A DNA stretch of 64,000 nucleotides from Spirochaetia bacterium (lineage in GTDB: Bacteria > Spirochaetota > Spirochaetia > SZUA-6 > Bin103): the NCBI GenBank assembly GCA_965203905.1, contig CBDBDQ010000005.1, positions 2,176,001 through 2,240,000 on the forward strand, in the 5' to 3' direction. Positions 34,173 to 53,450 of the stretch are shown in pieces. A program made the translations under genes and the position numbers. Every line of letters begins with the position of its first letter. The stretch's first letter is position 1. The notes under the pieces are model-generated. The model was not told the DNA's origin and searched no databases. It was given only the letters and a program-made list of their open reading frames with translations.

Positions 34173-34314
34173 GTGAGCCGTCGCTTCTGGGACGACTTCG
34201 AGAGCCTGCTCCCCTCATCACCCCCTCAAGCCACCGACCAACTCCACGCGGAGGCCGCCTGACCGCTACCACACTACGCGAATGCACCCTGGGATAGCTG
34301 GGATAGGATGTCGC

Positions 34315-34344
34315 TTGCGTATGGCCAACGGATGGGTGTAGGTT
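34315..34344 (+). promoter_or_regulatory. Putative sigma70 promoter of the NYN-1 leader
   Basis: TTGCGT-N18-TAGGTT. Confidence 0.45.
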
Positions 34345-34350
34345 AAGGTC

Positions 34351-34414
34351 AATTACCCGCCGGCAGCATGCTGTCGGCTCAAGGGCTGCTCCCCGGAGCG
34401 GCCCTTGCTTTTTT
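34351..34414 (+). ncRNA. Candidate structured leader/antitoxin RNA upstream of NYN-1
   Basis: Hairpin GCCGGCAG-CATG-CTGTCGGC (34359-34378) followed after 1 nt by a terminator hairpin and T6. Confidence 0.45.
34380..34414 (+). terminator. Intrinsic terminator 12 nt upstream of the NYN-1 start codon
   Basis: CAAGGGCTGCTC-CCCG-GAGCGGCCCTTG then CTTTTTT. Confidence 0.7.
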
Positions 34415-34426
34415 CCGGGGGCGGAA

Positions 34427-35200
34427 ATGAGAACCAGGGTCTATGTCGACGGGTTCAACCTGTACTACGGAGCGCTGAAGGGAACGCCCTTCAGGTGGCT
34501 CGATCCGGTCCGGTTGACCTCCCTCCTCCTGCCCCGTGAGTGCGTTGTCGACCGGCTTCGGTACTTTACCGCGCGGGTCTCTGGCAAGGTGGACCCCCGG
34601 GCGCCCGCGCGCCAGCGCATCTACATGAAGGCGCTCGCGACATTGCCCGAAGTCGAGATCCACTACGGCCGTTTCCTCGCCAAGACGGCCTGGCGTCCGC
34701 TCGCCAACCTGCCGGTGGCGGGCAGGCGGATTGACACGCCTGAGGCCGTCACGCTGCCGGAGGGCAACCATCGCGTGGTCGGCGAACGCCCCCGGACCCT
34801 TCCGGTCGGCGCCTATCCGGACCGACGTCGGCGCTGCGAAGCCGTCCCGCGCGCAGCCCGCATTCCGGTTCCCGACGCCCTGATCGCTGAGTTCCATACG
34901 ATGGAGGAGAAGGGTTCGGACGTGAATCTCGCCGCCCATCTGCTGAACGATGCCTGGAAGAATCTCTTCGAGGCGGCAGTGGTGATCTCGAACGACACGG
35001 ACCTGGTGGTGCCGATCCGCATGGTCACCGCAGAACGCAACCGTCCGGTCTTCGTCGTGTGTCCGGGTCGGTGGCAGATGGCGCCTCAGTTGCGGAGTGC
35101 GGCAAGCCATGTCCGGCATATCCACCGCGCGGCATTGAGGGCGGCGCAGTTCCCGAACACCTTGCCGGGCACCGGGATCTCGAAACCGGACGGTTGGTGA
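34427..35200 (+). CDS. NYN-domain (PIN-fold) ribonuclease, NYN-1
   Basis: VYVDGFNLYYG, RYFTA, EEKGSDVNLA, VISNDTDL; acidic catalytic residues intact. Confidence 0.9.
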   Translation: MRTRVYVDGFNLYYGALKGTPFRWLDPVRLTSLLLPRECVVDRLRYFTARVSGKVDPRAPARQRIYMKALATLPEVEIHYGRFLAKTAWRPLANLPVAGRRIDTPEAVTLPEGNHRVVGERPRTLPVGAYPDRRRRCEAVPRAARIPVPDALIAEFHTMEEKGSDVNLAAHLLNDAWKNLFEAAVVISNDTDLVVPIRMVTAERNRPVFVVCPGRWQMAPQLRSAASHVRHIHRAALRAAQFPNTLPGTGISKPDGW

Positions 35201-35270
35201 CTGGCTTATTTCATGCGATTGCGTGGGCGTCCTGAAGTGAATTGGCGGAGGTTGCGGGCAGGGTAAGGAC

Positions 35271-35726
35271 ATGGCCGAAGGCATCCATTGGAAGTCCATA
35301 TCACGTTTCGAGTCGCATGACTTCGTTGCCAAGTGGTTTCACAAGGCACATGGGAGAAACGCGAGTGCGTCAAAGGTCGCGCAGATAAACGCCTGCTTCG
35401 CCCACGTGCGGGAGTCCTTCCGGAACGCAGAACGCTCGGAAATGAGCGTCAGACCGTTGCTCCTCTACTATGGGGTGCTGTCCTGCTGCCGCGGCGTAAT
35501 TCTGGCGAACAACCCAGACAAGAAGGAGGAGTCGCTCAAACCGCGGCACGGGCTCGAAGCGGTCGACTGGCAAAGCACGCTCAGCGGCGGGATCAAAAGC
35601 GTTCTGGAACTGGAGATCCGGGCAACCGACGGGACGTTCAGGGAACTGGTGGATGTCTGCTGGCACCTGAAGGCTGCGCGCAGTCCGCCTCCGCGGGCAT
35701 GTATGGCCGCCAGGGTCTCGCCCTGA
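35271..35726 (+). pseudogene. YaaC-like protein, C-terminally truncated
   Basis: A..SVRPLLLYYG...HGL...GTF.EL motif, then an abrupt return to GC-rich sequence. Confidence 0.55.
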
Positions 35727-35831
35727 AGTCGGCGTACACAGTCTCCCTGTGCCACAGGGTATGTGGCTTTCGGACTTGATGCAACGCGAAAGCTCTCCTG
35801 ACCAGGAGAGGGGCGGTGTCAGGTCAGCGCG

Positions 35832-36827
35832 TCACCGTTGCTGCAGGGCGACGGTGCGCTGGCTGCGGGCGGCCTCCTGCGCGGCCTCCATCACCCGCAA
35901 CGTGAGGACGGCGTCACGGGCGTCGAGCAGGGGAGTGGCGCCGTCCAGGAGGCAGTCGTGGAAGTGCTCGAGCGCCGGGGTGAACGCGCGCACGCCGTTG
36001 TGCAGTTCGACGCGCGCGGTGGCGGCGGGCGTGGTGAGGGTGTAGGCGCTCTCCTCGTAGGGGTGGGTCGGCTGCTCGATGAGCAGCGAGCCGCCGCTGC
36101 CGATGAGCTGCGCTCCCGGAGAGGTCAGGCCGTCGAAGCCGCCGTACAGGGTCGCCACCACGCCGCCGGGGAACGTCAGCAGCAGCCCCAGGTGGCGGTC
36201 CACGCCATGTTCGGGATCGAGGTGCCAGGTGGCGCTGACGTGAGTCGGCTCGCTGCCGGCCGCCCAGCGCGCCACGGTGATCAGGTAGCAGCCCACGTCC
36301 ATCAGCACGCCGCCGGCCAGCTCCGGTTGCCAGCGGATGTTGTCGCCGCGTGGAAGGTTGGAGCTCATGCGCATGTGCACGTGGCGCAGGTCGCCGATCG
36401 CCCCGCCGTCCAGCAGGCCGCGCAGGCGCCGGGTCTGGGGGTGGTAGCGGAACACCATCGCTTCCCACAGCAGCACGCCGTGGTCGCGGGCGGCGTCCAC
36501 CATGCGCTGCGCCGCCGCCGCGGTGGTGGCCAGCGGCTTCTCGCAGAAGACGTGCTTGCCGCACTCAGCCGCGCGCAGCGCCCACTCCTCGTGCATGGTG
36601 TTGGGCAGCGGCAGGTACACGGCGTCCACCAGGTCGCTGGCGAGCAGGGCGCCGTAGCTGTCGAACACCTCGGGGATGCCGAGGTCGCCGGCAAACGCCG
36701 CGGTACGGCCGGCGTCGCGCCCGGCCACCGCCACGAGCTCGCCGCGCCGGGTGGCGCGCAACGCCGGGATGAACACGTAGCGCCCGATCTGGGCGGTGCT
36801 GACAATGCCCCATCGAATCCTGGTCAT
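35832..36827 (-). CDS. Gfo/Idh/MocA oxidoreductase
   Basis: IRWGIVSTAQIG, VYLPLPNTMH, GKHVFCEKP, GGVLMDVGCY. Confidence 0.9.
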   Translation of the reverse strand: MTRIRWGIVSTAQIGRYVFIPALRATRRGELVAVAGRDAGRTAAFAGDLGIPEVFDSYGALLASDLVDAVYLPLPNTMHEEWALRAAECGKHVFCEKPLATTAAAAQRMVDAARDHGVLLWEAMVFRYHPQTRRLRGLLDGGAIGDLRHVHMRMSSNLPRGDNIRWQPELAGGVLMDVGCYLITVARWAAGSEPTHVSATWHLDPEHGVDRHLGLLLTFPGGVVATLYGGFDGLTSPGAQLIGSGGSLLIEQPTHPYEESAYTLTTPAATARVELHNGVRAFTPALEHFHDCLLDGATPLLDARDAVLTLRVMEAAQEAARSQRTVALQQR

Positions 36828-36886
36828 GATGTCGGTTCCACTCCTCGTGCTGGCCACGCGTCTCGCGCTACAATAATCCCCACGCC

Positions 36887-37705
36887 ATGAGAATCGTACG
36901 CTACGCCAAGGGTGAGACGGTCGGCTACGGCTGTCAACGTGAGGATGGAACCATCGTCGCCATCAACGGCGACCCGCTTGCCGGCATGCCCGGAGGCACG
37001 CCCTACTCGGTGACGCGCCGGGTGATCAGTGACGCGCAGGTGCTGGCCCCGGTGGTGCCGGGCAGCGTGCTGTGCATCGGCCTCAACTACCGCCGCCACG
37101 CCGCCGAGTCCGGGGTGGCGGTGCCCGACCACCCGGTGCTGTTCATGAAGATGCCGTCGTCGGTGCAGCGCCCGGGCGGCCCCATCGTGCTGCCGCGCTC
37201 CCTGCGCAGCGACGAGGTGGACTACGAGTGCGAGCTGGCGGTGGTGATCGGACGTCGCTGCCGCAACGTTTCCCGCGAGCAGGCCCTCGACTACGTGCTC
37301 GGCTACACCTGCGGCAACGACGTCAGCGCCCGCGACTGGCAGATGCAGTGGGGCGGCGGGCAATGGTGCCGCGGCAAGACCTTCGACACCTTCTGCCCGC
37401 TGGGACCGGCGCTGGTGACCGCGGACGAGATCCCCGACCCCAACGCCCTGCGCATCAAGACCGTGGTCAACGGCGAGACCCTGCAGGACTGGAGCACCAA
37501 CGACATGATCTTCGACGTGCCCGAGCTGATCGCCTTCCTCAGCGGCAGCAGCACCCTGGAGCCGGGCACCGTGATCATGACCGGCACGCCGCACGGGGTG
37601 GGCGCCGCGCGCACGCCGCCGCGCTTCCTGCAGCCGGGCGACACGGTCACGGTGGAGATCGAGAAGATCGGCGCCCTCACCAACCCGGTGGTAGCGGAGG
37701 AGTGA
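36887..37705 (+). CDS. Fumarylacetoacetate hydrolase-family protein
   Basis: CIGLNY, DYECELAVVIG, NDVSARDWQ, GKTFDTFCPLGP, TGTPHGVG. Confidence 0.92.
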   Translation: MRIVRYAKGETVGYGCQREDGTIVAINGDPLAGMPGGTPYSVTRRVISDAQVLAPVVPGSVLCIGLNYRRHAAESGVAVPDHPVLFMKMPSSVQRPGGPIVLPRSLRSDEVDYECELAVVIGRRCRNVSREQALDYVLGYTCGNDVSARDWQMQWGGGQWCRGKTFDTFCPLGPALVTADEIPDPNALRIKTVVNGETLQDWSTNDMIFDVPELIAFLSGSSTLEPGTVIMTGTPHGVGAARTPPRFLQPGDTVTVEIEKIGALTNPVVAEE

Positions 37706-38622
37706 GCCAGATCCGCTACTCGACGATCGCGAAGTCGGGGCCGACGAACCCGCGCAACGATACCGCGAGCGTGGTCGAGCTGAACAACGGCGAGCTGCTG
37801 GTGCTGTGGCACAAGTACGAGGCGACGGCGGACGCGGGACACGACCTCATCTACTTCTTGCGAGCGGTTTCGAGCGCCTCATGAAGCCTGCTGCCGGATC
37901 CACGGCAAGACCTCCGCCGACCAGGGGCTGACCTGGGGTGGCGAGCGCATGATCGTCGACATCGCGCCGGGCGACCTGAACGTCCAGGCGCCGGCGCTCG
38001 CGCGACTGCCCACGGGCGAGTTGCTCATGATCTGCCTGCGCGCCCACTCGGAGAGCAGCACGACCATGTGCGCGTACCTGTCGGAGGATGAAGGGCGCAC
38101 CTTCACGCCGATCGGCACCGTGTGGGAGCGCTCGCCGGGCCAGTGGCTGCAGGGTGGCGCGGTCGCCATCGTCGTGCTCTCGTGCGGCCGGCTGCTGGTG
38201 CCCTGCCACGGCGGCACGGGCGGCCAGTTCAGCCAGCACAACGGCGGCTGGTGCTGGCTCAGCGAGGACCACGGCAGGAGCTGGGTGCGCTCGCGGGGCA
38301 CCGTGGACCTGCCGCTGCGCGGCGCCATGGAGCCGTCCCTGGCGGAGGTCGCCAGCGGCCGGATCTTCATGTCGCTCCGAACCCAGTTGGGGGCGGTGTT
38401 CCTGGCGAGCTCCGAGGACGGCGGCGACACCTGGTCCCTGCCGCAACGACCGGCCTGAAGGCCGCCGAGTCGGGCACCAGCGACGGCAACGCGGTGGTGA
38501 CCTACCTGCAGGTCGAGGACCGGGACTGGAAACGCTTCATCAGAACCGGCATCGATCTCCAGGCCGCCATCGTTCCGGTGTCGAGGATTCTGCAGGCCGG
38601 GTCGGCCCCGGCCGAAGCCTGA
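37702..38622 (+). pseudogene. BNR/Asp-box sialidase-like protein, disrupted
   Basis: Asp boxes SADQGLTW, SEDEGRTF, SEDHGRSW, SEDGGDTW; about 40 bp insertion with stop near 37849-37890, frameshift near 38445 and a C-terminal deletion. Confidence 0.7.
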
Positions 38623-38649
38623 GAGGAGAAACGGAGTTCGCGAGCCCCC

Positions 38650-39606
38650 TCAAGGAGCGCGGCCGGCCGCTGCTTCGAGCAGCCGCACCAGGGCCGGCTT
38701 GCGGCGCCGGCGAGCGTAATCGAGCGCGGTCTCGCCGCCGGGCTGGGTGGGGCTCCGGCGGGTGCGCAAGGTGGCGTCGGGGCGGTAGCCGAGGATCAGC
38801 CTGACCCAGGCCACGGTGCCCGCGACCACCGCCTCGTGCAGCGCCGTCTTGCCGGTGCTGTCCTGCCTGCTCGGATCGGCGCCGTGGTCCAGCAGCAGCC
38901 GCGCCATCTCCGGGTAGCGGTTGGCGATGGCGCGGTGCCGCGCGGTCCCGCCGAGGTGCCCCGCCGGACAGTCGGGGGAGGCGCCGCGTTCCAGCAGCAG
39001 CGCGGCCGCGGCCAGGGCGTTGCCCTCCACGGCGTCGGCCAGGGGTGGGTGGCCGTGCCGGTTCACGGCCGCGAGGTCCGCACCCCGCGCCAGCAGCAGG
39101 CGCAGCGCATCCGGCTGGTTGCCGCGCGCGGCGGCGTGCAACGGGGTGGCGCCGCGCCGGTCGCGTTCGCCCACCGCGGAGGCGCGCGCATCGAGCATGC
39201 GCCGGAGTTGTTCCAGCGCACCCAGTCCCGCAGCGTCCACCGCGCGCATGCGGCAGCCGCGGCGCACCAGCAGCTCCGCGATCGCCAGCGCCCCCGCCGC
39301 CGGCGCCGCGTCCAGCAGCGTGGAGCCGCCGTGATTCACCTGCAGCGGGTCGGCGCCGAGCTCCAGCAGCAGTGCCACGATCGCGGGGCGCCGCGCCGCG
39401 ATCGCCTCCCGGATCGGCGTGCCGCCGTGCGCGTTGCGGGCATCGACCAGGGCGGGATGTCGCGCCAGCAGCGCCGCTACCTGCCCCGGCGTGCCGCGGC
39501 GTACGGCCTGCAGGAGCTGGCCGCGGGCCTCGCGCCGGCTCACCCGGGCAGGCGGGTCATTGGGAGATGTGTGGGCATCCGATGCCGTAACCGGGGAGCG
39601 TGCCAC
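38650..39606 (-). CDS. Ankyrin-repeat protein
   Basis: Repeated G.TPLH.AA...LLL..GAD motifs. Confidence 0.85.
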   Translation of the reverse strand: MARSPVTASDAHTSPNDPPARVSRREARGQLLQAVRRGTPGQVAALLARHPALVDARNAHGGTPIREAIAARRPAIVALLLELGADPLQVNHGGSTLLDAAPAAGALAIAELLVRRGCRMRAVDAAGLGALEQLRRMLDARASAVGERDRRGATPLHAAARGNQPDALRLLLARGADLAAVNRHGHPPLADAVEGNALAAAALLLERGASPDCPAGHLGGTARHRAIANRYPEMARLLLDHGADPSRQDSTGKTALHEAVVAGTVAWVRLILGYRPDATLRTRRSPTQPGGETALDYARRRRKPALVRLLEAAAGRAP

Positions 39607-39610
39607 CGGT

Positions 39611-41008
39611 TCAGGTGTTGAACATCTCCTCCACGCGGGAGATCGACTCGGTCTTGGCCACCATGGTGAGCTTGTCGCCGTCGTGCAGGACGAAGTCGCC
39701 CCGTGGCACCACGTGGGAACCGTTGCGCGTCACCGCCACCACCAGCGAGTTGTCCGGCATCCTGATGTCGCGCAGCTCGCGCCCGACGAAGCCGCGGGAG
39801 CCGTCCAGCGTCGACTCGATCACCTCGGCCATGCCGCCGAAGATGCTGTGCACGCTCTTCACGCGGCCGCGGCGGATGAACTTGAGGATGCTGTTCACCA
39901 CGCTGTACTTGGGACTGATGATGACGTCGGCGCCGAGGCGCGAGGCCACCGTGAGGTAGTTGAACTTGTTGACCAGGGCGATCGAGCGCTTGATGCCCAG
40001 GGTCTTGGCATAGATCGCCACCAGGATATTGAGCTCCGGGTTGTTGGTGGTGGTGATGATCAGGTCGTACCCGGCCAGCGCCTCCTCCTCGAAGAACCCC
40101 TCCTCGGAGACGTCGCTGTTGATCACCACCGCATCGGGAAACTGCTCGGCCAGCCGTTTGCAGTTCTCGTAGTCGCTGTCCACGATCTTGAGCTTCTTGT
40201 GGTCGCGCCGCAGGTAGTCGAGCAGGCGGTGCGCGCGCCGCCCGTTGGGCTTCTCCACCAGCGCTTCGGCAACGAAGCTCCCGACCCGGCCGCCGCCCAC
40301 CAGCAGCACGCTCCTGATGGTCACCCGCGGCCGTCCAGCGATCACGAACACCTCGTCCAGCGTGTTCTCGGCGGCTATCAGGTATAGCTCGTCGCCGGTC
40401 TCCACGCGCGCGTCCCCGCGCGGCACGAAGAACTCCTCGCCGCGCGAGATCCCCGCCACCATGAACTCGGTGTCCAGCGCCTGCTTGATGGCGGCGATGC
40501 TCTGGCGTGCGAACAGGGTGCGGTCGTCCACCAGGAAGTTGCGCATCTGCAGGTCGGTGTTCTCGAAGGTCATGACGTCGCTGGTGGCGCCCTGCTCCAC
40601 CGACTTGATGATGGCCCGCGCCGCCTCGATCTCGGGATTGACGAAGTAGTCCACCTCCAGGAAGGAGTGCTCCGGCAGGTGGGAGTTGGCGTACTCCGGG
40701 TTGCGCACCCGCGCGATCTTGCACGGCACCCCGAACTCGCTCGCCACCAGGCCGCAGGAGACGATGTTGAGCTCGTCGCTGTCGGTGACGCTGATGAAGA
40801 AGTCGGCGCCGTCGATGCCCGCCTCGCGCAGCGCCGGCAGGCGGTTGCCGGAGTCGTTGATCACCATGCAGTCGAGGTGGTTCACGGCGTACTTGGCCGT
40901 CTCCGGATCACGCTCGATGAGGACCACGTCCTTGTTGTCGGCCACCAGGTGGCGGGCCACCTGGAAGCCGGTGGTGCCGGCGCCGGCGATGACTACCTTC
41001 TCAGCCAT
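39611..41008 (-). CDS. trkA: Trk potassium uptake regulatory subunit
   Basis: Two RCK_N/RCK_C pairs; IAGAG, VTDSDELN, KIARVRN, GGGRVG, AEVIE. Confidence 0.93.
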   Translation of the reverse strand: MAEKVVIAGAGTTGFQVARHLVADNKDVVLIERDPETAKYAVNHLDCMVINDSGNRLPALREAGIDGADFFISVTDSDELNIVSCGLVASEFGVPCKIARVRNPEYANSHLPEHSFLEVDYFVNPEIEAARAIIKSVEQGATSDVMTFENTDLQMRNFLVDDRTLFARQSIAAIKQALDTEFMVAGISRGEEFFVPRGDARVETGDELYLIAAENTLDEVFVIAGRPRVTIRSVLLVGGGRVGSFVAEALVEKPNGRRAHRLLDYLRRDHKKLKIVDSDYENCKRLAEQFPDAVVINSDVSEEGFFEEEALAGYDLIITTTNNPELNILVAIYAKTLGIKRSIALVNKFNYLTVASRLGADVIISPKYSVVNSILKFIRRGRVKSVHSIFGGMAEVIESTLDGSRGFVGRELRDIRMPDNSLVVAVTRNGSHVVPRGDFVLHDGDKLTMVAKTESISRVEEMFNT

Positions 41009-41094
41009 CGGCGTTCAATATGGACGCTGCGCAGGATGCTGGCAACTCACCCGCCACTGGCATTTTTCACCGCTCCGTGATGGAATCGGCAGCC

Positions 41095-42462
41095 ATGAAG
41101 ATCACGTTCATCGGGGCCGGCTCCACCGTCTTCGTGAAGAACATCATCGGCGACTGCATGCTGGCCGAGCCGCTGCGCGACGCCACGGTCGCGCTGTACG
41201 ACATCGATGCCCGGCGGCTGCAGGAGTCGAAGGCGATGCTGGACACGCTGAACGGCAATATCAACGCAGCGCGCGCCACCATCGAGACCTATTTGGGTAC
41301 GGAGGCGCGTCAGGAAGCACTGCGTGGGGCCGACTTCGTGGTCAACGCAATCCAGGTGGGCGGCTACGAGCCGAGCACGGTGATCGACTTCGAGGTGCCC
41401 AAGAAGTACGGGCTGCGCCAGACCATCGCCGATACCCTGGGCATCGGCGGCATCTTCCGCGCCTTGCGCACCATTCCGGTGATGCTCGACTTCGCCCGCG
41501 ACATGGAGGAGGTGGCCCCGGACGCCTGGCTGCTGAACTACACCAACCCGATGGCGATGGTGATGGGCGCGGTGCTGCACGCGACCGGGGTGCGTGCGGT
41601 GGGGCTGTGCCACTCGGTGCAGGCGTGCGTGCCGAAGCTGCTGGGAAGGCTGGGCATGGAGCACGATCCGGCCGCCACCAAGTGGCAGATCGCCGGCATC
41701 AATCACCAGGCGTGGCTGCTGGAGCTGAAGGCGGCCGGCGCCGACCTGTACCCGGAGGTGAAGCGGCGTGCCGCCGAGATGAACTGCGCGGCGCGGGACG
41801 GCCAGGACAAGCACGACGACATGATCCGCTTCGAAATGATGCGCCACTTCGGCTACTACGTCACCGAGTCATCGGAGCACAGCGCCGAGTATTTCCCCTA
41901 CTGGATCAAGAGCACCCACCCGGAGCTGATCGCCGAGTTCAACATCCCGCTCGACGAGTACATCCGCCGCTGCATCCGGCAGCTCGAGCGCTGGCGCACG
42001 CAGAGCGCCACCATGGTCGGCAACCCCGACCTGAGCCACCAGCGCTCGGTGGAGTACGGCTCGCGCATCATGGAGGCGATCGTCACCGACCGCCCCTACC
42101 GCATCCACGGCAACATCCTCAACGACGGCTTCATCGGCAACCTGCCGGCGGGGACGTGCGTGGAGGTGCCGTCGCTGGTGGACCGCAACGGGGTGCAGGG
42201 CTGTGTGGTGGGCGACCTGCCGGAGCCGTGCGCGGCGCTCAACCGCACCAACGTCAACGTGCAGCTGCTCACCGTGGAGGCGGCGCTGGAACGGCGCCGC
42301 GACCGCATCTACCAGGCGGCCATGCTCGATCCGCACACCGCCAGCGAGCTGTCGCTGGACCAGATCGTGAGCCTGTGCGATGAGCTGATCGAAGCGCACG
42401 GCGATCTGCTGCCGGCCTACCGCAGCGATCCGCTGCCGGCCTACCGCAGCAACGGTGCGTAA
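41095..42462 (+). CDS. melA: GH4 alpha-galactosidase/alpha-glucosidase
   Basis: KITFIGAGSTVF, QTIADTLGIGGIFR, LNYTNPM, GLCHSVQ, TESSEH. Confidence 0.88.
   Translation: MKITFIGAGSTVFVKNIIGDCMLAEPLRDATVALYDIDARRLQESKAMLDTLNGNINAARATIETYLGTEARQEALRGADFVVNAIQVGGYEPSTVIDFEVPKKYGLRQTIADTLGIGGIFRALRTIPVMLDFARDMEEVAPDAWLLNYTNPMAMVMGAVLHATGVRAVGLCHSVQACVPKLLGRLGMEHDPAATKWQIAGINHQAWLLELKAAGADLYPEVKRRAAEMNCAARDGQDKHDDMIRFEMMRHFGYYVTESSEHSAEYFPYWIKSTHPELIAEFNIPLDEYIRRCIRQLERWRTQSATMVGNPDLSHQRSVEYGSRIMEAIVTDRPYRIHGNILNDGFIGNLPAGTCVEVPSLVDRNGVQGCVVGDLPEPCAALNRTNVNVQLLTVEAALERRRDRIYQAAMLDPHTASELSLDQIVSLCDELIEAHGDLLPAYRSDPLPAYRSNGA
42403..42450 (+). repeat. 24-bp in-frame tandem duplication at the GH4 C-terminus
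   Basis: GATC(T/C)GCTGCCGGCCTACCGCAGC x2, encoding DLLPAYRS/DPLPAYRS. Confidence 0.9.
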
Positions 42463-42494
42463 CCGGCGGCGGGCCTTGCCGGTGGGGCGCTGAC

Positions 42495-44000: not shown

Positions 44001-44020
44001 CCCTCAGACGTACATGAAGT

Positions 44021-44221: not shown

Positions 44222-44538
44222 AGCTGAAGTATGCCGTGGTGTATGAACAGACTCCGAACAACTACGGTGCCTATGTCCCCGATCTGCCCGGCTGCATCAG
44301 CACCGGTGCCAGCCGGCGTGAGATTCAGGACAACATCCGCGAGGCTATCGAATTTCACATTGAGGGGTTGCTGGAGAGTGGCGACTCGGTACCGAATCCT
44401 CGGATGTCGATTGGGGACGCCATGACATTCCACAGCGAGGTGCTGAGCGAACAGGGCGGCTCCGCTCCGCAACTGGAGACCACGGTAGCGATGGTTGAGA
44501 TTGAGGTAACGCCGTCACGGGCAGCCGGAGTACGTTGA
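44218..44538 (+). CDS. hicB: HicB-family antitoxin
   Basis: YAVVYE...YGAYVPDLPGC.S.G...NIREAIEFHIE; ATGA overlap with hicA. Confidence 0.9.
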   Translation: MKLKYAVVYEQTPNNYGAYVPDLPGCISTGASRREIQDNIREAIEFHIEGLLESGDSVPNPRMSIGDAMTFHSEVLSEQGGSAPQLETTVAMVEIEVTPSRAAGVR

Positions 44539-44566
44539 CTCCCTCGCTGGCACAAGTTCGACGCCA

Positions 44567-45286: not shown

Positions 45287-45295
45287 CCGTCGCGG

Positions 45296-46333
45296 TCAGC
45301 CGGCTACGTCGATTACCACCTTGAGGGCCTGGCGCTCTCCCTTGGCCAGGGCAGTCATCATCGCCGGCACCTCGTCCAGGGTGCAGCGGCCCTCGATGAA
45401 GCCGGACAGCTCGCGTTGCAGGCCGCCCAGCATAGCCACCGCGTCGCCGAAGGCGCGCCGGTCGAAGCCGTAGGTCCCGACCAGGGTCCATTCGTAGCTG
45501 ATCATGTCCTGCACTGACAGCGGCACCTCCTTGGCGAGGTTGCCGATCATCAGCACGGTGCCGCCCTCCGCCACCATGCCCACGGCGCTGACGAAGGATG
45601 CGCGGCTACCCACGGCGTCGACCACCACATCGGGCGGCTCGCCGAGTGCCGCGGTTACCGCCGCGCTGGTATCTTCTGCCGCGGCGTCGGCCGCGATCGG
45701 AACCGCCGTCGCCCCCAACCCGGCAGCGCGCTCCGCCTTGGCGGCGATGGTGTCCAGCGAAGCGATCCGCTGCGCGCCGCGGGCGCGCGCCACCAGCACG
45801 CCCGCCATGCCGATGGTGCCGGCGCCGAGAATTGCCACCCGGCGCGGCGTCACGTTGCGCGCCTCCAGCCGGTGCCAGCCGTGCAGCACCACGCCCAGCG
45901 GTTCCGCCAGCAGGCCGATCTCGCTCGGCACGCCGTCGGCCAGCGGGATCAGGTTGGCCGTGGGGACCGCGACGTACTCCGCCATCGCCCCGCGCTTGCC
46001 CAGGTTCACCCCTATGAGCTGCTTGTTGAGGAACGACGGATCGCCCTCCTCAGGGCTCGGCGCGTGCTCCGCGATGATGTTGTAGAGCGCCACCCGCGTG
46101 CCCACGGGCGGGGCGTCGGCGCCGGGACCGAGCTCTGCGACGGTGCCGCTTACCTCATGGCCCATCACCATGCCGGGGGCGCGGCGGCCGCTCTCCCCGG
46201 TGAAACCGTGCACGTCACTGCCGCAGATGCCCACCGTATCCACCCGCAGCAACGCTTCTCCGCCGGCCGGCTCCGGCGTCGGCAGGTCGACCACCTCCAT
46301 GTCCCACGGCCCGTTGTAGACAACAGCTTTCAT
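45296..46333 (-). CDS. Zinc-binding (MDR) dehydrogenase
   Basis: GICGSDVH, MGHE, AEPL, GAGTIG. Confidence 0.88.
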   Translation of the reverse strand: MKAVVYNGPWDMEVVDLPTPEPAGGEALLRVDTVGICGSDVHGFTGESGRRAPGMVMGHEVSGTVAELGPGADAPPVGTRVALYNIIAEHAPSPEEGDPSFLNKQLIGVNLGKRGAMAEYVAVPTANLIPLADGVPSEIGLLAEPLGVVLHGWHRLEARNVTPRRVAILGAGTIGMAGVLVARARGAQRIASLDTIAAKAERAAGLGATAVPIAADAAAEDTSAAVTAALGEPPDVVVDAVGSRASFVSAVGMVAEGGTVLMIGNLAKEVPLSVQDMISYEWTLVGTYGFDRRAFGDAVAMLGGLQRELSGFIEGRCTLDEVPAMMTALAKGERQALKVVIDVAG

Positions 46334-46556
46334 CGGGGCCGAGCATAGCACGGGAGCGGTGGACTGATACGCGCGTTCCATAGGCGCATGGTCCTGCGAG
46401 CCTACTACCGCTTCCGCTCTGGTCGAACCTGACGCTGTCCCGGTGCACAGCCTGCCCCTTGCGGTCCCGGCAAAGCCTCGTATCATAAGCAGGGTGAGGA
46501 CCACTCCCAGCGAGTTCGCATCGGCGGACATCCGTTACGAACGGGGCAACCGGGAC

Positions 46557-47607
46557 TTGCTACGACACTTCTCAGCAGTTTCAGCGCTGTTCGCTACAAG
46601 GGCATAGACGGCCTGCCATTGCCCCGTCTCTCTCAGGCCAATCTCATCACTGGGGTCAATGGCGTGGGCAAGACGGCGTTGATCGAAGCTATCTGGCTGT
46701 TCATGGGGCGATACAACCCTTCCCTCTTGTGGAACGCTAACGTCCAACGCGCACGCAACCCGGTACGCAACCCAGTCGACAGGCTTTCTGGCCCGGTGCT
46801 GGAGCTCTTCGGAACGGAAAGCGGGCTGGACCATAGCGTACGCTGGACGTTCGAGCGCGTGTCGGAGTTCGTACAGCCGCTGACGGTGGGTGAAGACGCC
46901 GACCGGATAATGCAGCTTCCCGTTGTCGGCCGCATCGACACTTTCTTGGACGGCGCCCTCGCAAAGGGTAGCATTGGCGGTATGCAGCCGACGCCTGGGG
47001 GCGTGGTAATGCACGAGAATCCGTTGCCGAACGGTGCTCGACCGAACTGTGTCATCGAGGGTACGCGGTATCAACTTGAAACGCCCGGTGAATTCCTGCG
47101 GCGCTACTCCGATCTGGTCAGAGAGAAGCGCAAGCAAGAGCTCAAGGATGCGATGAGCATGATTCTTCCGGCGGTGCGTGATTTCGAGATTCTGACCGAT
47201 GAGAAGGGCGATTCGTACCTTTCAGGAGTAACGGCAGACGGAAAGCAGCTGCCGCTCCATGATCTCGGCGGAGGAGTTGTCAGACTCTGCCAGCTGCTAC
47301 TGAGCTGCTTTGCATCTCGTGGGGGTATCCTGCTTGCGGATGAGATGGAAAACGGCATGCACCACTCAGCGCTCCCAGAAGTGTGGAATCGCGCCCGTCA
47401 GTGGATGCGAGAGTGGAGCGTCCAGCTCGTGGCGACGACTCACAGCGCGGAATGGATCGAAGCCGCGACCAATGCGTTTGAGGACGCTCCCGATGATCTG
47501 TCCGTGCATAGATTGTTTACCAACCGTGAAACGCACAACGTAGAGGCGGTTACTTTACCGGCGATACGCTTGAGGGAGCGCGCGATCTCAACCTGGAGAT
47601 CCGGTAG
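46557..47607 (+). pseudogene. AAA_15/AAA_21-type ATPase, frameshifted
   Basis: YKGI..L, ITGVNGVGKT, LGGG, LADEMENGMH, ATTHS; frameshifts near 46580 and 47555 (restored end ...DLNLEIR*). Confidence 0.75.
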
Positions 47608-48253
47608 TGCGGAAGATTCGCAAGCAACGGCTATTGTTGGTTGAGGGCAGGGATGAGGTAAATCTGTTTTGTGCGATGATCCGTGACTGTTTTGACGACG
47701 ATCCCGGCATACAAGTGATCGACGCAGGATGGAAGGACAAGTTCAGCCGAAACCTGAGAGCCATTAAGGCAGCAGCGACGGCGGGACCCGCCCTGCAGTC
47801 GATTGGCGTCGTCCGTGATGCTGACGACGACGCTAGCGCCGCCTTCGACAGCGTGTGCGATGGCATCCGGAGCGCGAACTATGAACCGCCAGCGAACCAT
47901 ATGGTGAGTTTTCCAACGCCCTGCCAGCGATTGGTGTGTTCATCGTACCGGACGGCACCAGTACGGGCGCCGTCGAGACCCTCTGTCGCCGGTCGCGTCA
48001 GGGGAATGTCACGGCAGTATGCGTTGACGACTATCTCAAGTGTCTGGAAGAGAGTCACGCTACGAGTTCAAAGAACACCGACAAGAGCTTTGCTCATGCT
48101 TATCTCGCCGCCATGGAGGATCCTATGGCGCGGGTAGGCGAAGGCGCTTTGCAGGGTGTATGGAATTTCACATCTTCGGCGTTCACACCGCTCGCGGGTT
48201 TTCTCCACCAGCTCGCCCTGCGTGCGGGCGGAATACCTCAAGCTCCGTCATAA
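47607..48253 (+). pseudogene. DUF3226-like TOPRIM-fold partner, frameshifted
   Basis: LLVEG.DE, IGVVRDAD, IGVFIVPD...G.VETL, K...HAYLA; extra AT near 47900 shifts the frame. Confidence 0.7.
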
Positions 48254-48449
48254 CGACGCGCCGCTGGCGGACGCGGGCGGTCGCCTGTGTCACTGCGGCG
48301 TTGGAGCGTTCAAGTGCCTCCAAGTGCGTTGACGCCGCATCATCGCGTAGGGACCGTCGCAAACGCACCGGTGGGAACGTACGAAATGTGTGTTGGCTCG
48401 CCCGCTTGGCGCGAGTGCCCCGACAGCGTAGCCTTGGCGGCGGGAAACC

Positions 48450-49361
48450 ATGCCCGAATTGCCATCGGTAACCGTATACGTTGAGCATCTGCGCCGCCGC
48501 ACCGTGGGCCGCACGTTGCAGCGCGTGCGCATCGCGAGTCCCTTCGTGCTGCGTTCCCACGATCCACCGATCAAAGCCGCGGACGGCAAGCAGGTACACG
48601 CCGTCGACCGTCTCGGCAAGCGCATCGTGTTCACGCTGAGCGACGAGCTGTTCCTGGTGCTGCACCTGATGATCGCCGGCCGCCTGCGCTGGCACGACGG
48701 GAGCGCGGCCGCCAAGATTCCGCGCAAGGTGGGGCTGGCCGGCTTCCAGTTCGACACCGGCACCCTGATCCTTACCGAGGCGGGCAGCAAGCGGCGTGCT
48801 TCGCTGCACCTGGTGGCGGGTGCCGCGGCGCTGGCCGAGCACGACCGCGGCGGGCTGGAGATCCAGGACGCCGACGCCGTTGCATTCCGAGAAGCGCTGC
48901 TGCGGGAGAACCACACCCTGAAGCGCGCGCTGGCCGATCCGCGCCTGTTCTCCGGCGTGGGCAACGCCTTCTCCGACGAGATCCTGCACCGCGCCGGGCT
49001 GTCCCCCCTGCAGCTCACCCAGCGCATGACAGAACCGCAGATTGACAAGCTGCGCCACGCCTGCGTTGACGTCCTCGGCGAGTGGGTGGAACTCCTGCGC
49101 GCCGAGAGCGGGGAGGCTTTTCCGAAGAAGGTGACCGCATTCCACCCGCGGATGGCGGTGCACGGCAAGTACGGGCAACCCTGTCCGGTGTGCGCCACGC
49201 CCGTGCAGCGCATCGTCTACGCCAACAACGAGAGCAACTACTGCCCGCGCTGCCAGACCGGCGGCAAGCTGCTCGCCGACCGCTCCCTCTCCCGGCTGCT
49301 CAAATCCGACTGGCCGCGCAGCGTCGAGGAACTGGAAGAACTCCGTAGACCCCGCCCCTGA
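48450..49361 (+). CDS. Fpg/Nei-family DNA glycosylase
   Basis: MPELP, R.GK, HLMIAG, SGVGNAFSDEIL, C-terminal CPVC...YCPRCQ zinc finger. Confidence 0.92.
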   Translation: MPELPSVTVYVEHLRRRTVGRTLQRVRIASPFVLRSHDPPIKAADGKQVHAVDRLGKRIVFTLSDELFLVLHLMIAGRLRWHDGSAAAKIPRKVGLAGFQFDTGTLILTEAGSKRRASLHLVAGAAALAEHDRGGLEIQDADAVAFREALLRENHTLKRALADPRLFSGVGNAFSDEILHRAGLSPLQLTQRMTEPQIDKLRHACVDVLGEWVELLRAESGEAFPKKVTAFHPRMAVHGKYGQPCPVCATPVQRIVYANNESNYCPRCQTGGKLLADRSLSRLLKSDWPRSVEELEELRRPRP

Positions 49362-49378
49362 GGGAGGAGGCGCCCTGC

Positions 49379-49837
49379 TCAACCAAAGAGCCGTCGCAAC
49401 CAGTCTCCAAGCTGGACCGCAGCGGGCGCCCCGGCATTCAGGTCCCTGGCCCCGATTGCGGACCCCATCTTCCGTGGCTCCTCTCGTGTGGCCAACCACG
49501 AATGAACCTTGGCGCGAAGTGTCTTTCCTGTGGCGAACTTGCGGTCAGCAACCGGTATCCCGTCGATATAGGTCTCGGATCGTGGCCACACCGGATCGTT
49601 GGTCGGAATCATGCCCGCGATGAACTCCTCCAGTTCGCCGGACGATACGTTGTTGGGCATCAACCAGATCCCGATTCGGGGCCTGTTGTCGATGATGGTC
49701 CCGGATGGGACAGTTGTCTTGCCGACGCCGTTCTTTCCGGCGAGCAGAGTCACGCGTCCGAGATGAGGGATTTTCAGTTGGTCAATCCCTCGGAATCCAT
49801 CGATGGTCAAGTTCGGAAGGTGAAGGGGGTCAGGCAT
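49379..49837 (-). pseudogene. In-frame fusion remnant: AAA ATPase N-terminus joined to DUF3226 C-terminus
   Basis: FRGI..L..LGRVTLLAGKNGVGKTTV joined directly to RIGIWLMPNN..GELEEF...KVHSWLATREEP..MG.AI. Confidence 0.75.
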
Positions 49838-49914
49838 ACTACACCGTCGGCCGAGAGGGTCGCTGCTGAAGGTCTATTGTAGCACCTGCACGGCTGACGT
49901 GTCGCAAGCTACGG

Positions 49915-50847
49915 TTAGCGCGGTGAGCGCCGCGACGTGATGGCGTTCAGCACGGCCTTCGACACGGTGCAGACCATCGTGTAGGCGGGGTCGAACATGT
50001 TGCCGAGCTGGTAGCCGACGGCCTGGCCGAGGACGATGTGGGCCAGGTGGCGGTCGAGGCCGTAGTCCTCCACCAGCCAGCGCAGCATCTCCGTGGTGGC
50101 GTGCTGCACGCACTGGTCGAGGGGACGGGCGTTGCCCAGGGTGGCGATGAACTGGGGCGCTTGCGCCCGTGGCCAGCCGATGGAGCGGCCCTTGTGCAAC
50201 TCGACGCGGAACACCACGTCGGCGGAGATCTCGATGCCGGTGCCGACGATCTCGCCGTCGCCCTGGACCGCGTGCACGTCGCCGAGGGCGAACAGGGCGC
50301 CCGGCTCGAACACTGGGAACAGGGCGGTGACCCCGGCGCGGAAGCCGTTCCAGTCCATGTTGCCGCCGTGGCGCTCGGAGGTGGCGGTGGAGATCGCCTG
50401 GTGCCGCGCCGGCGCGACGCCGAAGCAGCCGATCATCGGCGCCAGCGGCAGGCGCCAGTGCTCCAGGCCGGGCAGGTCCAGGGGCGAGGCGACGCCGGCA
50501 GCGACGTCCACCGCCCATTCGATGCGTTCCGGCAGGTCGCCGGGCAGGGTGGGGTGGCCGGGGTCGAGCACGTTGGACGCCACCCAGGACTTGGTGTAGC
50601 CGCGGTCGCGGTTGGGGCGGATCAACTCCAGGTGCACCGCCAGCGTGTCTCCCGGCTCGGCACCGGCCACTCGGAACGGACCGGTCTGTGGGTTGCCGGA
50701 CGGGGTCACGGCGTGCCCGTCGGCATCGCAGCCGCCGGCATCGACGGTGGTGGTGGCCACCCGGTCGCCGGGTTCGATGGTAAGCACCGGATCATGCGGA
50801 CCGAGGGTGGTGTGATAGTGGGTGGGAAAGAACTGATGATCGGCCAA
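49915..50847 (-). CDS. Acetamidase/formamidase-family protein
   Basis: NPQTGP..V.GAEPGD, PMIGCFG, HGGNMD, GDVHAVQGDGE; TTG start after AGGAG. Confidence 0.88.
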   Translation of the reverse strand: MADHQFFPTHYHTTLGPHDPVLTIEPGDRVATTTVDAGGCDADGHAVTPSGNPQTGPFRVAGAEPGDTLAVHLELIRPNRDRGYTKSWVASNVLDPGHPTLPGDLPERIEWAVDVAAGVASPLDLPGLEHWRLPLAPMIGCFGVAPARHQAISTATSERHGGNMDWNGFRAGVTALFPVFEPGALFALGDVHAVQGDGEIVGTGIEISADVVFRVELHKGRSIGWPRAQAPQFIATLGNARPLDQCVQHATTEMLRWLVEDYGLDRHLAHIVLGQAVGYQLGNMFDPAYTMVCTVSKAVLNAITSRRSPR

Positions 50848-51111
50848 CGGCGGACTCCTGCAGTTGCGCGAACGGGGTTGCCCGCGCGGATTGACCACAG
50901 GATACCCTCACGCGGCGCGCTTGGCAGGTACCATTGACAGGCAGCGGGGACCCCGATGTCGACACCGGCGCGCTGGGTGGAGGACCACCTGCTCGGGGCT
51001 GGAACTCGCCGCAGCCGTGGAGCGGGAGTTGCGCGGGCGCGGCATGTACGACCTAACGGTGCGCCGCTCCAGCCCTACGGGCGGCCACCGCTACGCGGGT
51101 TGCCTGATCGG

Positions 51112-52119
51112 CTACCCGGCCGGTGGTTCGTGGACCAGTGCTGCGCGGGTAATCGGATGCTCGCCGAGCACCGGCACGGTCGCCTTTGCTTGCACCCCTC
51201 CGACCAACTCCAGAGAGTCGCCGAATTCGCATGACCTGATGCGCCGCTCGATCAGGTTGACGAACGTGGGGTTCAACTCAACTCCGACCCATTTTCTCCC
51301 CAGATCCTCAGCCGCCAGCAACGTTGTTCCGGAACCGGCATACGGATCCAGCACCACGTCATGCGGACGGCTGGTGATAGCGACGCATCGCCGTGCCAGC
51401 GTCATCGGCATCATCGCGGGATGATCATCCATGGTGCCGTCGCGCCGTAGCGGCTCCGTCGGAATGTCCCAGACCGTCCTCAGGCGGCGCCCCTTGGGTC
51501 CACGTACCACGTCGATGTCATAGTAGTAGTCCTGACTCTTTGACAGGAGGAATATGGTCTCGTGGGCTTTCGTCGGGCGATCGCGAACCGATTCCGGATG
51601 GGCATTCGGCTTGTGCCAGATGACCTCCGAGCGTAGCCACCAGCCCCGGTCCTGTAGGGCGAAGGCGAGCCGCCAGGGGATTCCGATCAGATCCTTGGGT
51701 TTGAGACCTTCCGGCGTCACTGGGCGCACCGTCATGGCGCGCGCCCGATTCTTGCGGTCCGGGGCGCGATATCGGCGGTTTCCCGACGTATAGGCGTCAC
51801 CCACGTTCAGCCACACCGTGCCATCGTCCGTGAGAACGCGGCGGAGCTTGTCGAACGTCTCCACGATGCTTGCCAGGTAGTCACTCAGGGGATCGTCCCG
51901 ACCGATCTGCCGATCGACCTCGTAGTTTCGGAGTGACCAGTATGGCGGCGAGGTCACCACTGTCTGAACGCTGCGCTCGGGAAGCAGGTCCATGGCATCA
52001 TTCGCGCATCCACACAGCAGCACCGACCGCTCCAGGCTGATATTCGCGGCTGGACCCTTCGTATCGAGCCGAATATAGTAAGGTTGTAACGACTCGCCCA
52101 CGGGAATTCGTTCACTCAT
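51112..52119 (-). CDS. Site-specific DNA methyltransferase (N4-C/N6-A, beta class), orphan
   Basis: VVTSPPY motif IV precedes VLDPYAGSGTT motif I; IWHKPN; HPA. Confidence 0.9.
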   Translation of the reverse strand: MSERIPVGESLQPYYIRLDTKGPAANISLERSVLLCGCANDAMDLLPERSVQTVVTSPPYWSLRNYEVDRQIGRDDPLSDYLASIVETFDKLRRVLTDDGTVWLNVGDAYTSGNRRYRAPDRKNRARAMTVRPVTPEGLKPKDLIGIPWRLAFALQDRGWWLRSEVIWHKPNAHPESVRDRPTKAHETIFLLSKSQDYYYDIDVVRGPKGRRLRTVWDIPTEPLRRDGTMDDHPAMMPMTLARRCVAITSRPHDVVLDPYAGSGTTLLAAEDLGRKWVGVELNPTFVNLIERRIRSCEFGDSLELVGGVQAKATVPVLGEHPITRAALVHEPPAG

Positions 52120-52185
52120 CTTAACGCATCAGCAGTTCTTGGTGCGGGCTGCTTCAGAGACGCGGTAGAACCAGCACCCATGGGT

Positions 52186-52215
52186 TCAGCAGGAGCACGT
52201 TCTTGTTGGCCTGCA
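52186..52215. repeat. 30-bp direct repeat, copy 1 (flanks NYN-2)
   Basis: TCAGCAGGAGCACGTTCTTGTTGGCCTGCA; 29/30 identical to 53603-53632. Confidence 0.85.
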
Positions 52216-52524
52216 GGTTGGTACGCCGGCTGCCTTATCGTTGGATTCACGTGACGTGACGCCCGGCTACTGGCTCACCTCATGGGTTTAAGGTGACGCG
52301 GCCGGGCAGTGACAGGTCGCCGGAGACAACGTCGTGCACTCCGGTGACGCACCCCAACGGGGCCTCAGCCTGTCGTTGATCTGCAGCTCCGCCGTCACGG
52401 CGTCGAACGACACGTTCTCGGTCTCGCTGACCGGGATCAGTGAGAGGCAGCGGTTGCGTCGGCACAGAGCGCGCCCGTCAGGTCCCAGGCTTGGCGTCAG
52501 CGTCCGGCCGAAAGGTTGCAAGCC

Positions 52525-53328
52525 TTACCCGTTATCCATGTGTTCCGACACGATCGTCCAGAAGGAGCCTCGGAGCTGATGTCTGGCTTCCTGATTGTCG
52601 CGAAGAGAACTCCCCAGGGCTTGCTCGCCGGTATGGATCAGTTCCGAGTCGATCAGAGACGGAATCCGGGGACGACCCTCAAGTAAAGTTCGAATTTCGT
52701 CTGAGTTCGCACTCTCGAGCCACTGTGCGGCGAATGTCTTTCCCACATCGGACAAGTCAGCATCGCCACCAATCTGTGGATATGGAGCTTGCGGGGTTGT
52801 GAAATACGCGCAAATATCCTCTCGATTCAAAACCACTACGTCGTCGGATTCGTATACCAGCTCTGGAGACTGGTTGCGTGATCCCGGCACTGGAGAAACT
52901 CCAATAAGGGTCACCCGCACTCCTTGATCCTGAGCCTCTTTAACCCCTTCGCGCAAGTCCTCATCGCCTGCTAGCAGGAAGGCTTCAGCTATCGCCCGAT
53001 CACGGGCAAGCGTCATGAGGTCCCGATAGATTAATGCATCTACTCCTTTCTGTTGTCCACGCGCATTGATCCGACCCAAGCGAAGCTTCACGTTGGGTAG
53101 ACAAGCAATGGCCTGTTGGCTCACGGTTCTGAGACCGAATCGCGCGCCGTCGTACCAGTAGGTGCGGAGAAATCTGAGCCCACATCGTTCTCGCAGTACA
53201 TTCGTCAGCATCACATTCAGATCTCGTTCGTTCACCTCGAATCGACGACGGGATGCCGTTCCGCAGCAGAGCTTTCCGCCTTCCGCGTACAAGTAGCCAG
53301 CATCCAAGAACAGCGCGAACTGGTCCAT
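52525..53328 (-). CDS. NYN-domain ribonuclease, NYN-2, with helical C-terminal extension
   Basis: FLDAGYLY, RTYWYDG, QQKGVD, LLAGDEDL; SD GGAGGT. Confidence 0.9.
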   Translation of the reverse strand: MDQFALFLDAGYLYAEGGKLCCGTASRRRFEVNERDLNVMLTNVLRERCGLRFLRTYWYDGARFGLRTVSQQAIACLPNVKLRLGRINARGQQKGVDALIYRDLMTLARDRAIAEAFLLAGDEDLREGVKEAQDQGVRVTLIGVSPVPGSRNQSPELVYESDDVVVLNREDICAYFTTPQAPYPQIGGDADLSDVGKTFAAQWLESANSDEIRTLLEGRPRIPSLIDSELIHTGEQALGSSLRDNQEARHQLRGSFWTIVSEHMDNG

Positions 53329-53338
53329 CAAGACCTCC

Positions 53339-53363
53339 AAAAAAAGGGCCTCCGAAGAGGCCC
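53339..53363 (-). terminator. Intrinsic terminator immediately upstream of the NYN-2 RBS
   Basis: Minus strand GGGCCTC-TTCG-GAGGCCC-TTTTTTT (cUUCGg tetraloop, U7). Confidence 0.85.
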
Positions 53364-53416
53364 CGGCTCCCCATCGAGGAGCTATCAAAACAAAGATGAT
53401 CGCCACAATGGCGATC
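53339..53416 (-). ncRNA. Candidate about 78-nt structured leader/antitoxin RNA upstream of NYN-2
   Basis: Three hairpins (53398-53416, 53366-53382, 53346-53363) and a U-rich linker between promoter and terminator. Confidence 0.5.
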
Positions 53417-53421
53417 GATAG

Positions 53422-53450
53422 AATGTACCGTGGTGGCTACCGAGCGTCAA
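53422..53450 (-). promoter_or_regulatory. Near-consensus sigma70 promoter
   Basis: Minus strand TTGACG-N17-TACATT. Confidence 0.75.

Follow-up and report, generated by a model that had tools for sequence, protein, structure and literature searches.

Two NYN Ribonuclease Genes With Structured Leaders

The window analyzed here is a whole stretch of 64,000 nt from the genome of a Spirochaetia bacterium (positions 2,176,001 to 2,240,000 of contig CBDBDQ010000005.1, assembly GCA_965203905.1). It has a G+C content of 67.7% and carries two genes of NYN (PIN-like) ribonucleases. NYN1 (34427-35200, + strand) encodes a 257-aa protein of the HEC-09 family, as assigned with Pfam NYN and PADLOC, and NYN2 (52525-53328, - strand) encodes a 267-aa protein of a second subfamily (Pfam NYN, E 3.5e-8). 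Each gene is preceded by a short leader of hairpins which ends in an intrinsic terminator. The initial annotation of this DNA had proposed an RNA-controlled NYN ribonuclease system resembling type III toxin-antitoxin (TA) loci, present twice independently. In the present analysis the leader was found to be conserved, covarying and specific to NYN genes, while the independent double origin was not borne out.

Both proteins exceeded the gathering cut-off of Pfam NYN (PF01936, 24.2 bits), NYN1 with 25.6 and NYN2 with 34.5 bits. They are indeed little alike, as had been stated, with a BLASTP E-value of 0.02-0.05 and a similarity confined to the catalytic motifs. The catalytic aspartates are kept in both: D8, D165, D175, D190, and D192 were invariant in an alignment of 30 family members including NYN1, and the KGxD and xDxD motifs of NYN2 align with the catalytic Asp motifs of the NYN1 family. 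In the 30-sequence alignment, NYN1 carries an insertion of about 50 residues, which was also the part of low confidence in its AlphaFold2 model (pLDDT 84.2). The best Foldseek matches of this model in the PDB were the NYN structure 2qip (E 2.5e-6) and the MARF1 NYN domains 5yaa and 6fdl, with target TM-scores of 0.64-0.70, and the predicted structure of NYN1 thus has the NYN/PIN-like fold. A sequence search of the PDB yielded no NYN1 relative, and for NYN2 nothing beyond noise. NYN1 matched the PADLOC model HEC-09 (PDLC04163), a candidate defense gene, at E 1.2e-39. NYN2 had no PADLOC match at E ≤ 0.01, HEC-09 included, and no NCBIfam match.

The NYN1 leader starts with a promoter-like site at 34315-34344 (+), with the -35 element at 34315-34320, an 18-nt spacer and the -10 element at 34339-34344. 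This site is weak, since it has 6 of 12 consensus matches, read by eye, and was not listed by the promoter scan. Its -10 element ends 10 nt before the conserved ACCC, which is the promoter position in the homologs. The predicted RNA begins with this 5' ACCC (34355-34358), followed in the fold by hairpin P1 (34359-34378, 8 pairs, 4-nt loop), and ACCC-P1 is probably its start and recognition unit. Hairpin P2 forms the intrinsic terminator (34380-34414), with a stem of 12 pairs (34380-34407, 8 G-C) and a run of six T (34409-34414). The ATG of NYN1 lies 12 nt past the T run, behind a G-rich Shine-Dalgarno (SD) stretch at about 34418-34425. R1, one of two covariance models (R1 and R2) built here, whose E-values are rough owing to a shortened calibration, matched the leader at 34342-34428 with 93.8 bits. 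The fold z-score was -3.06, and none of 200 shuffled sequences folded as well.

The NYN2 leader, on the - strand, has a better sigma-70-type promoter (53422-53450; TTGACG, 17 nt, TACATT; 9/12 matches) and three hairpins. H1 with its U-rich tail (53387-53416; hairpin 53416-53398) was seen both in the fold and in the terminator scan, and may act as a first terminator. H2 (53366-53382) is the equivalent of P1 in the fold, and the group-2 model R2 aligns it as P1. H3 (stem 53364-53345) and its T run form the intrinsic terminator (53339-53364), followed by GGAGG and the ATG. R2 matched this leader at 53326-53394 (-) with 21.2 bits; its fold z-score was -3.32, and 1 of 200 shuffles folded as well.

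Hairpins with an intrinsic terminator were therefore confirmed 10-20 nt before both start codons. The sigma70 promoter claimed for both genes holds for NYN2; that of NYN1 is weak, though positioned as in the homologs. There are 21 terminator-like sites in the 64 kb, a total not above that of shuffled sequences. Among these sites, only the NYN1 and NYN2 terminators have both 6 or more G-C pairs and 5 or more T in an unbroken run, in agreement with the observation that other genes of the window have no such terminator before the open reading frame (ORF). As both NYN genes diverge from their upstream neighbors, the leader terminators do not end an upstream gene. A leader peptide was also considered for NYN1, encoded by 20 codons that open with an ATG in the P1 loop and close with a TGA that overlaps the start of NYN. 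It was ruled out, as the leader lengths of homologs differ by non-multiples of three and the group-2 loops have no start codon.

Conservation and Covariation of the Leader

To find out whether the hairpins are conserved upstream of homologs, one genome per species was scanned for relatives of NYN1, and the best 80 of 520 found were analyzed. These 80 loci come from at least nine phyla and include Acidobacteriota, Alpha- and Gammaproteobacteria, Gemmatimonadota, Nitrospirota, Nitrospinota, Chloroflexota, Bacteroidota, Verrucomicrobiota, and Binatia. In a simple, independent scan for a hairpin plus T tract, 51 of the 80 loci had a terminator whose end lies no more than 30 nt upstream of the start codon. 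The upstream sequences fell into two related types. Group 1 (27 leaders) is near-invariant from the 5' ACCC through P1 into the terminator, and group 2 (32 leaders) has the same plan in a different sequence.

RNAalifold recovered P1 and P2 in both groups. The pairs of both hairpins are kept with G-U and compensatory changes, and changes on both sides of a pair were seen at 9 of 20 pairs in group 1 and at 13 of 17 in group 2. In the group-2 alignment, which was partly chosen by the structure model and therefore favors pairing (its seeds, however, were fixed upstream windows or matches of the other-group model), 93.9% of the cells pair, compared to 36-57% in controls with a slid partner. The covariation score was 0.486 against a shuffled mean of 0.245, and none of 500 shuffles reached this value. 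The G-U pairs indicate that the leader structure is strand-specific.

With R1 and R2 together, a same-strand leader was found directly upstream of the NYN gene in 76 of the 80 loci, 21 of which had contributed to neither of the seed alignments. Of the remaining four loci, L029 lies at a contig end, L044 and L081 carry the leader inverted, and L087 carries it in convergent orientation. Of 77 leaders, 50 have a promoter-like site with at least 8 of 12 matches that ends 8-10 nt ahead of the ACCC, compared to 3 of 76 control regions taken 150 nt further upstream; with at least 9 of 12 matches the counts were 32 of 77 and 0 of 76. In 58 of the 77 leaders, P2 is followed by a T tract. In a separate set of 49 viral contigs with relatives, the leader was same-strand upstream in 34, convergent in 3, inverted in 1 and missing in 11, two of which have no upstream sequence. 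These results indicated that the hairpins are conserved, with covariation, upstream of NYN homologs, and this attempt to refute the proposal failed.

No protein partner is conserved beside the 80 genes, as the largest true flanking cluster covers 5 loci. An apparent top cluster of downstream proteins was rejected, since it consists of pieces of frameshifted NYN genes. In several metagenome-assembled genomes (MAGs), the homologs (L027, L030, L031, L035, L061) are split by frameshifts and their leaders are intact; these genes are either pseudogenes or the result of long-read indel errors.

Leaders on Plasmids and Prophages

The family also occurs on plasmids. Searches gave 69 plasmid records with NYN1 as the query and 132 with an E. 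coli plasmid copy, and many of the plasmids are 3.4-5.7 kb in size. In the E. coli plasmid NZ_CP075066.1 (4609 bp, ColE1/Rop-type), a promoter-like site is followed by 3.5 tandem copies of a 33-nt repeat, and then by the terminator, GGAG and the start codon of the NYN gene. The repeat (TRF, 88% matches) has the P1 hairpin with ACCC as its unit, and its last copy shows, by eye, a compensatory pair change relative to the other copies. R1 recognizes the array with 19 bits, the match being cut by the record end. Altogether 17 near-identical plasmid records have the 3.5-copy array. In a second lineage of small plasmids (Klebsiella, E. coli; 5.1-5.7 kb), a leader of about 230 nt contains two direct repeats before a strong terminator. 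The Mycobacterium plasmid L181 and the 3461-bp plasmid L177 gave no match to R1 or R2; by eye, L177 has ACCC and hairpins with a weak T tract.

The orientation of the RNA gene is variable. In the Mycobacterium prophage prophiGD43A-1, the leader motif (56.9 bits) has its own TTGACA-17-TAGCCT site, is convergent with the NYN gene and ends at its stop codon; this NYN copy adjoins the prophage immunity region. Together with this prophage, L087 and three viral contigs have a convergent RNA gene at the 3' end of NYN (L087, L184, L221, L223, L224). An inverted RNA gene lies directly upstream of NYN in three loci, of the group-1 type in L044 and L081 and of the group-2 type in L220. The inverted and convergent RNA genes each have their own promoter-like site.

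Some distant relatives encoded on Pseudomonas, Cupriavidus, and Agrobacterium plasmids carry annotations that describe a fusion to an Xre/MbcA/ParS toxin-binding (DUF2384) domain or borrow its name, or that read "nicB". Such annotations would be a protein-level link of NYN to TA biology.

Specificity in the Host Genome and the Phylum

The host genome has 8 Mb. R2 gave four matches in it at E < 0.1, and all four are NYN loci: the leader of a third HEC-09-type gene (NYN3) at 6.75 Mb, a leader at 2.94 Mb, and the leaders of NYN1 and NYN2. That of NYN2 was the fourth-best match (21 bits, E 0.013). The leader at 2.94 Mb (G000:C5:2943472-2943556; L171:1501-1585, -) is an intact group-2 leader with 47.8 bits. 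Behind it stands a frameshifted NYN remnant, in which a NYN start is followed by the conserved N-terminal motif out of frame. At this locus the RNA appears to have outlived its nuclease. The only addition by R1 in the host genome was a borderline match at G000:C5:423784, which is a plain hairpin without a NYN gene. In addition, the ORFs of two further NYN2-like genes, at 3.32 and 7.1 Mb, are both preceded by a promoter-like site, hairpins and a terminator, and the NYN loci of the host genome with a terminator before the ORF number at least six.

In 150 other genomes of the phylum there were two matches above 33 bits, of which one is a leader followed by a NYN gene and the other an orphan leader. 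The orphan (L186:1501-1589, -, 45.6 bits) closely resembles the Leptospira plasmid leader; it is followed by no NYN gene, and the opposite strand has an unrelated ORF of 170 aa. Matches below 30 bits in the phylum were discarded as generic hairpins or a palindromic repeat without NYN. This repeat, matched at low score in L189, L191, L193, and L194 (genomes G073 and G039), is unrelated to NYN; it lies in AT-rich intergenic DNA and has inverted arms of the GTACA type on both sides of a C-rich hairpin.

The NYN2 Branch and a Common Origin

Among the relatives of NYN2, L090 (79% identity) has a three-hairpin leader of nearly identical sequence. L091 (48% identity) has a leader of different sequence with three hairpins of the same shape. 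In L092, L093, and a host paralog, a hairpin and a terminator lie at a greater distance from the start. Among 401 genomes of the phylum there was no NYN2 relative except a paralog, and the viral contigs had none. NYN2-type copies were found on plasmid pNGR234a of Sinorhizobium fredii NGR234 and on two Azospirillum plasmids. The leaders of these alphaproteobacterial copies have a promoter-like site, either a 5' end of the ACCC type or a long P1, and a terminator resembling the NYN1-group sequence; R1 scored them weakly, with 20.8, 15.0, and 10.9 bits. In Azospirillum thermophilum (L249:770-1000), a second copy of the terminator hairpin that precedes the NYN2-like gene lies about 190 nt further upstream, and the two copies bracket the promoter and the leader.

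The presence of the layout twice independently, as first suggested, is thus not supported: at least six NYN loci of the host are terminator-led, the ACCC and terminator type of the NYN1 group is shared by the NYN2-type leaders of the alphaproteobacterial plasmids, and the NYN2 leader is itself matched by R2. From these sequence comparisons, the two window leaders are more likely diverged versions of one old RNA-NYN pairing, by common descent rather than convergence. The signal for homology between the NYN1-type and the NYN2-type leaders is weak.

Neighboring Genes in the Window

The genes around NYN1 and NYN2 are partly decayed, as had been noted before. Divergent from NYN1 lies an ORF of a VapC-like PIN protein (33810-34214, -) which covers profile positions 22-111 of 120 and misses the N-terminus. 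The ATG upstream of it is in a different frame and no vapB-like ORF precedes it, and it looks like a decayed toxin gene. Downstream, a YaaC-like ORF (35271-35726, +, 151 aa) covers only positions 3-128 of a profile of 307, and it was absent beside the NYN1 homologs of the 80 loci in the flanking-cluster comparison. The upstream neighbor of NYN2, also divergent, is an ABC transporter gene. Neither NYN gene has an adjoining small ORF or a conserved protein neighbor, consistent with the earlier statement that a protein antitoxin gene is missing.

The NYN2 region (52001-53000) has 58% G+C, which is below the window average, and may be an acquired island. It adjoins a gene of a type II N6/N4 DNA methyltransferase (51112-52119, -), beside which no obvious restriction gene was seen. 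Elsewhere in the window, positions 4001-6000 have 47-51% G+C inside a 68% G+C genome and contain several of the best promoter-like sites of the window.

A Putative Two-Part RNA-NYN Module

The RNA element is conserved with covariation, has a promoter before it and a terminator behind it, and is linked to NYN genes in any orientation. We further inferred that a short RNA would accumulate and bind NYN, that NYN would be toxic, and that the module would defend or stabilize its carrier. In our judgment it is somewhat probable that the RNA is the cognate inhibitor of the NYN nuclease, in a two-part type III TA-like or abortive-infection module. The first part would be a constitutively promoted, highly structured small RNA, which would be about 60 nt long at NYN1 (5' ACCC, P1, terminator P2) and about 95 nt long at NYN2, where it would have one extra 5' hairpin. 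The second part would be the gene of the NYN ribonuclease, with its ribosome-binding site just past the terminator, so that the nuclease would be made only from the minority of read-through transcripts. The terminator would keep the RNA in excess over the nuclease, and the RNA would bind NYN via the ACCC-P1 unit and inhibit it. When the RNA supply collapses, by phage-induced shut-off or by loss of the plasmid or prophage, the nuclease would be freed, and the module would in this way defend or stabilize its carrier.

It is unlikely, in our estimate, that the leader is a pure cis-acting attenuator or insulator which keeps NYN low, perhaps through feedback in which NYN cleaves or binds its own 5' leader, and whose short RNA has no function of its own. 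RNases that regulate their own mRNA are known, as in the cases of RNase III, RNase E, and Regnase-1. The common layout would suit an attenuator equally well, and the window copies themselves may be plain attenuators, since the element is on the same strand with the SD right after the terminator at the 76 genome and the 34 viral loci, and at both window loci as well; with the SD in this place, read-through is required for NYN expression. However, the linkage of the RNA gene to NYN persists where the RNA gene is inverted (L044, L081, L220) or convergent (L087, L184, L221, L223, L224), and in these layouts it cannot attenuate the transcription of NYN. Moreover, an attenuator would gain nothing from a tandem multiplication of P1, the sequence conservation of the 5' ACCC and the P1 loop exceeds what pairing alone requires, and no conserved antiterminator pairing was evident in the consensus folds of groups 1 and 2. 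The repeats, the independence of orientation and the lack of a conserved protein partner favor a trans-acting partner RNA over a plain attenuator.

Such a partner could also be a positive one, acting as a cofactor, scaffold, decoy-sensor or preferred substrate, with an RNA-protein particle as the active unit. The linkage, the specificity and the orientation independence fit this explanation equally well, and a P1 loop and ACCC conserved in sequence are what would be expected of a protein-binding site. Nevertheless we regard it as quite improbable. The RNA has no variable guide-like segment, being conserved or covarying throughout, and the terminator layout yields an excess of RNA, which is typical of an inhibitor. 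Furthermore, the leader beside the frameshifted NYN remnant and the orphan leader fit an antidote that has outlived its toxin.

That the hairpins act as DNA (a recombination site, plasmid iterons or a terminator shared with a neighbor) or are chance terminators is very improbable: direct repeats beside a gene on small plasmids can be iterons, and the number of terminator-like sites in the window is unexceptional, but the G-U wobble pairs hold on the transcribed strand only, as does the T tract, the promoter lies at a fixed distance, the repeat-bearing plasmids are of the ColE1/Rop type and need no iterons, the window NYN genes diverge from their upstream neighbors, and the motif is NYN-specific genome-wide.

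Several points, besides the same-strand layout at most loci, weigh against the RNA being an inhibitor of type III kind. Such a leader is missing from two LabA-like NYN genes of the host genome, and of 80 metagenome relatives of NYN2, about 74 are of an actinobacterial type (about 40% identity) that stands behind a conserved upstream gene without a terminator leader. These leaderless genes indicate that the leader trait is limited to certain subfamilies. Tandem arrays involving the leader were found in none of the 80 genome loci and at neither window locus, most members having a single hairpin unit. Related MAGs are not independent observations, which affects the counts across MAGs. The putative toxin has a NYN/PIN-like fold and does not belong to the ToxN/AbiQ, CptN, or TenpN families, and hence the NYN module is not a member of ToxIN, CptIN, or TenpIN. 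Finally, no protection against the phages tested was obtained with a HEC-09 representative that had been cloned together with its putative native promoter region, and the passages on HEC-09 in the same study report no toxicity (Payne et al., bioRxiv 10.1101/2024.01.29.577857).

Taken together, we consider the chances evenly balanced that this is a further type III-like TA or abortive-infection family of many phyla. It would consist of a NYN toxin and a minimal ACCC-hairpin RNA between transcription start and terminator, with the RNA unit single, tandem, inverted or convergent. Its carriers would be chromosomes, small ColE1-type plasmids and prophages, and it would descend from one ancestral RNA-nuclease pair, having diverged along with several NYN subfamilies. 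Type III TA is now counted as three families with one toxin fold, to which the NYN-RNA module, if true, would add a new toxin fold with a very small and easily tested RNA. It would also give a concrete reason why the HEC-09 candidate appeared inert when cloned, and would assign a function to one of the few genes on many enterobacterial plasmids of 3.4-5.7 kb. The R1 and R2 models could annotate hundreds of loci, and the E. coli plasmid version makes the question of an RNA-NYN pair directly testable.

Comparison With Known Systems

No known RNA family accounts for the leaders. Rfam had no match in the window at gathering scores, abiF (RF03085) included. In E-value mode the matches were generic two-hairpin ones below threshold (6C with 22 bits against 47, BjrC68 with 19 against 39) and were rejected. 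Our literature search found no paper on an RNA partner or RNA antitoxin for NYN proteins, in line with the initial annotation, which regarded such control as not established.

HEC-09 has been described as a MARF1-like NYN domain with conserved aspartates, embedded in Hma defense systems (Payne et al., bioRxiv 10.1101/2024.01.29.577857). The terms "ncRNA" and "non-coding" do not occur in the main text of that paper. NYN1 shares the MARF1-like fold and the conserved aspartates, whereas NYN2 has no HEC-09 match.

The closest layout is that of AbiF-RCd22 of Clostridioides difficile (abiF motif, RF03085), with the same order of promoter, motif RNA, terminator, ribosome-binding site and toxin. As described for that system, a SigA-type promoter drives a non-coding RNA of about 100 nt with one or two conserved hairpin motifs. 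A Rho-independent terminator and then the ribosome-binding site and the toxin follow, with no promoter described between them, and the short RNA outweighs the read-through. RCd22 neutralizes AbiF by direct binding, in cis and in trans. It recently showed that other RNases can be held by a leader RNA. In contrast to the NYN modules, the toxin there is described as an Abi_2/HEPN protein, and the RNA motif is unrelated.

The NYN element resembles attenuators and the leaders of self-regulated RNases in being a structured 5' leader whose terminator immediately precedes the coding region. Unlike them, it comes with a conserved promoter of its own, can occur in several copies, and keeps its linkage to NYN when inverted or convergent.

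A 2026 paper, in its account of type III TA, still lists three families only. With these (ToxIN, CptIN, TenpIN) the NYN module shares the order of promoter, RNA, intrinsic terminator and an RNase gene reached by read-through, as well as the absence of a protein antitoxin. The NYN family is also found on plasmids, in prophages and in defense contexts, and in its enterobacterial plasmid lineage the RNA forms a tandem array like that of ToxI (33-nt period, 3.5 copies). In contrast to type III TA, most NYN members carry one RNA unit, a simple hairpin and not the known pseudoknot repeat; since this single unit is bounded by the transcription start and the terminator, no processing is needed. On present evidence, the NYN module would seem to work like the type III TA systems.

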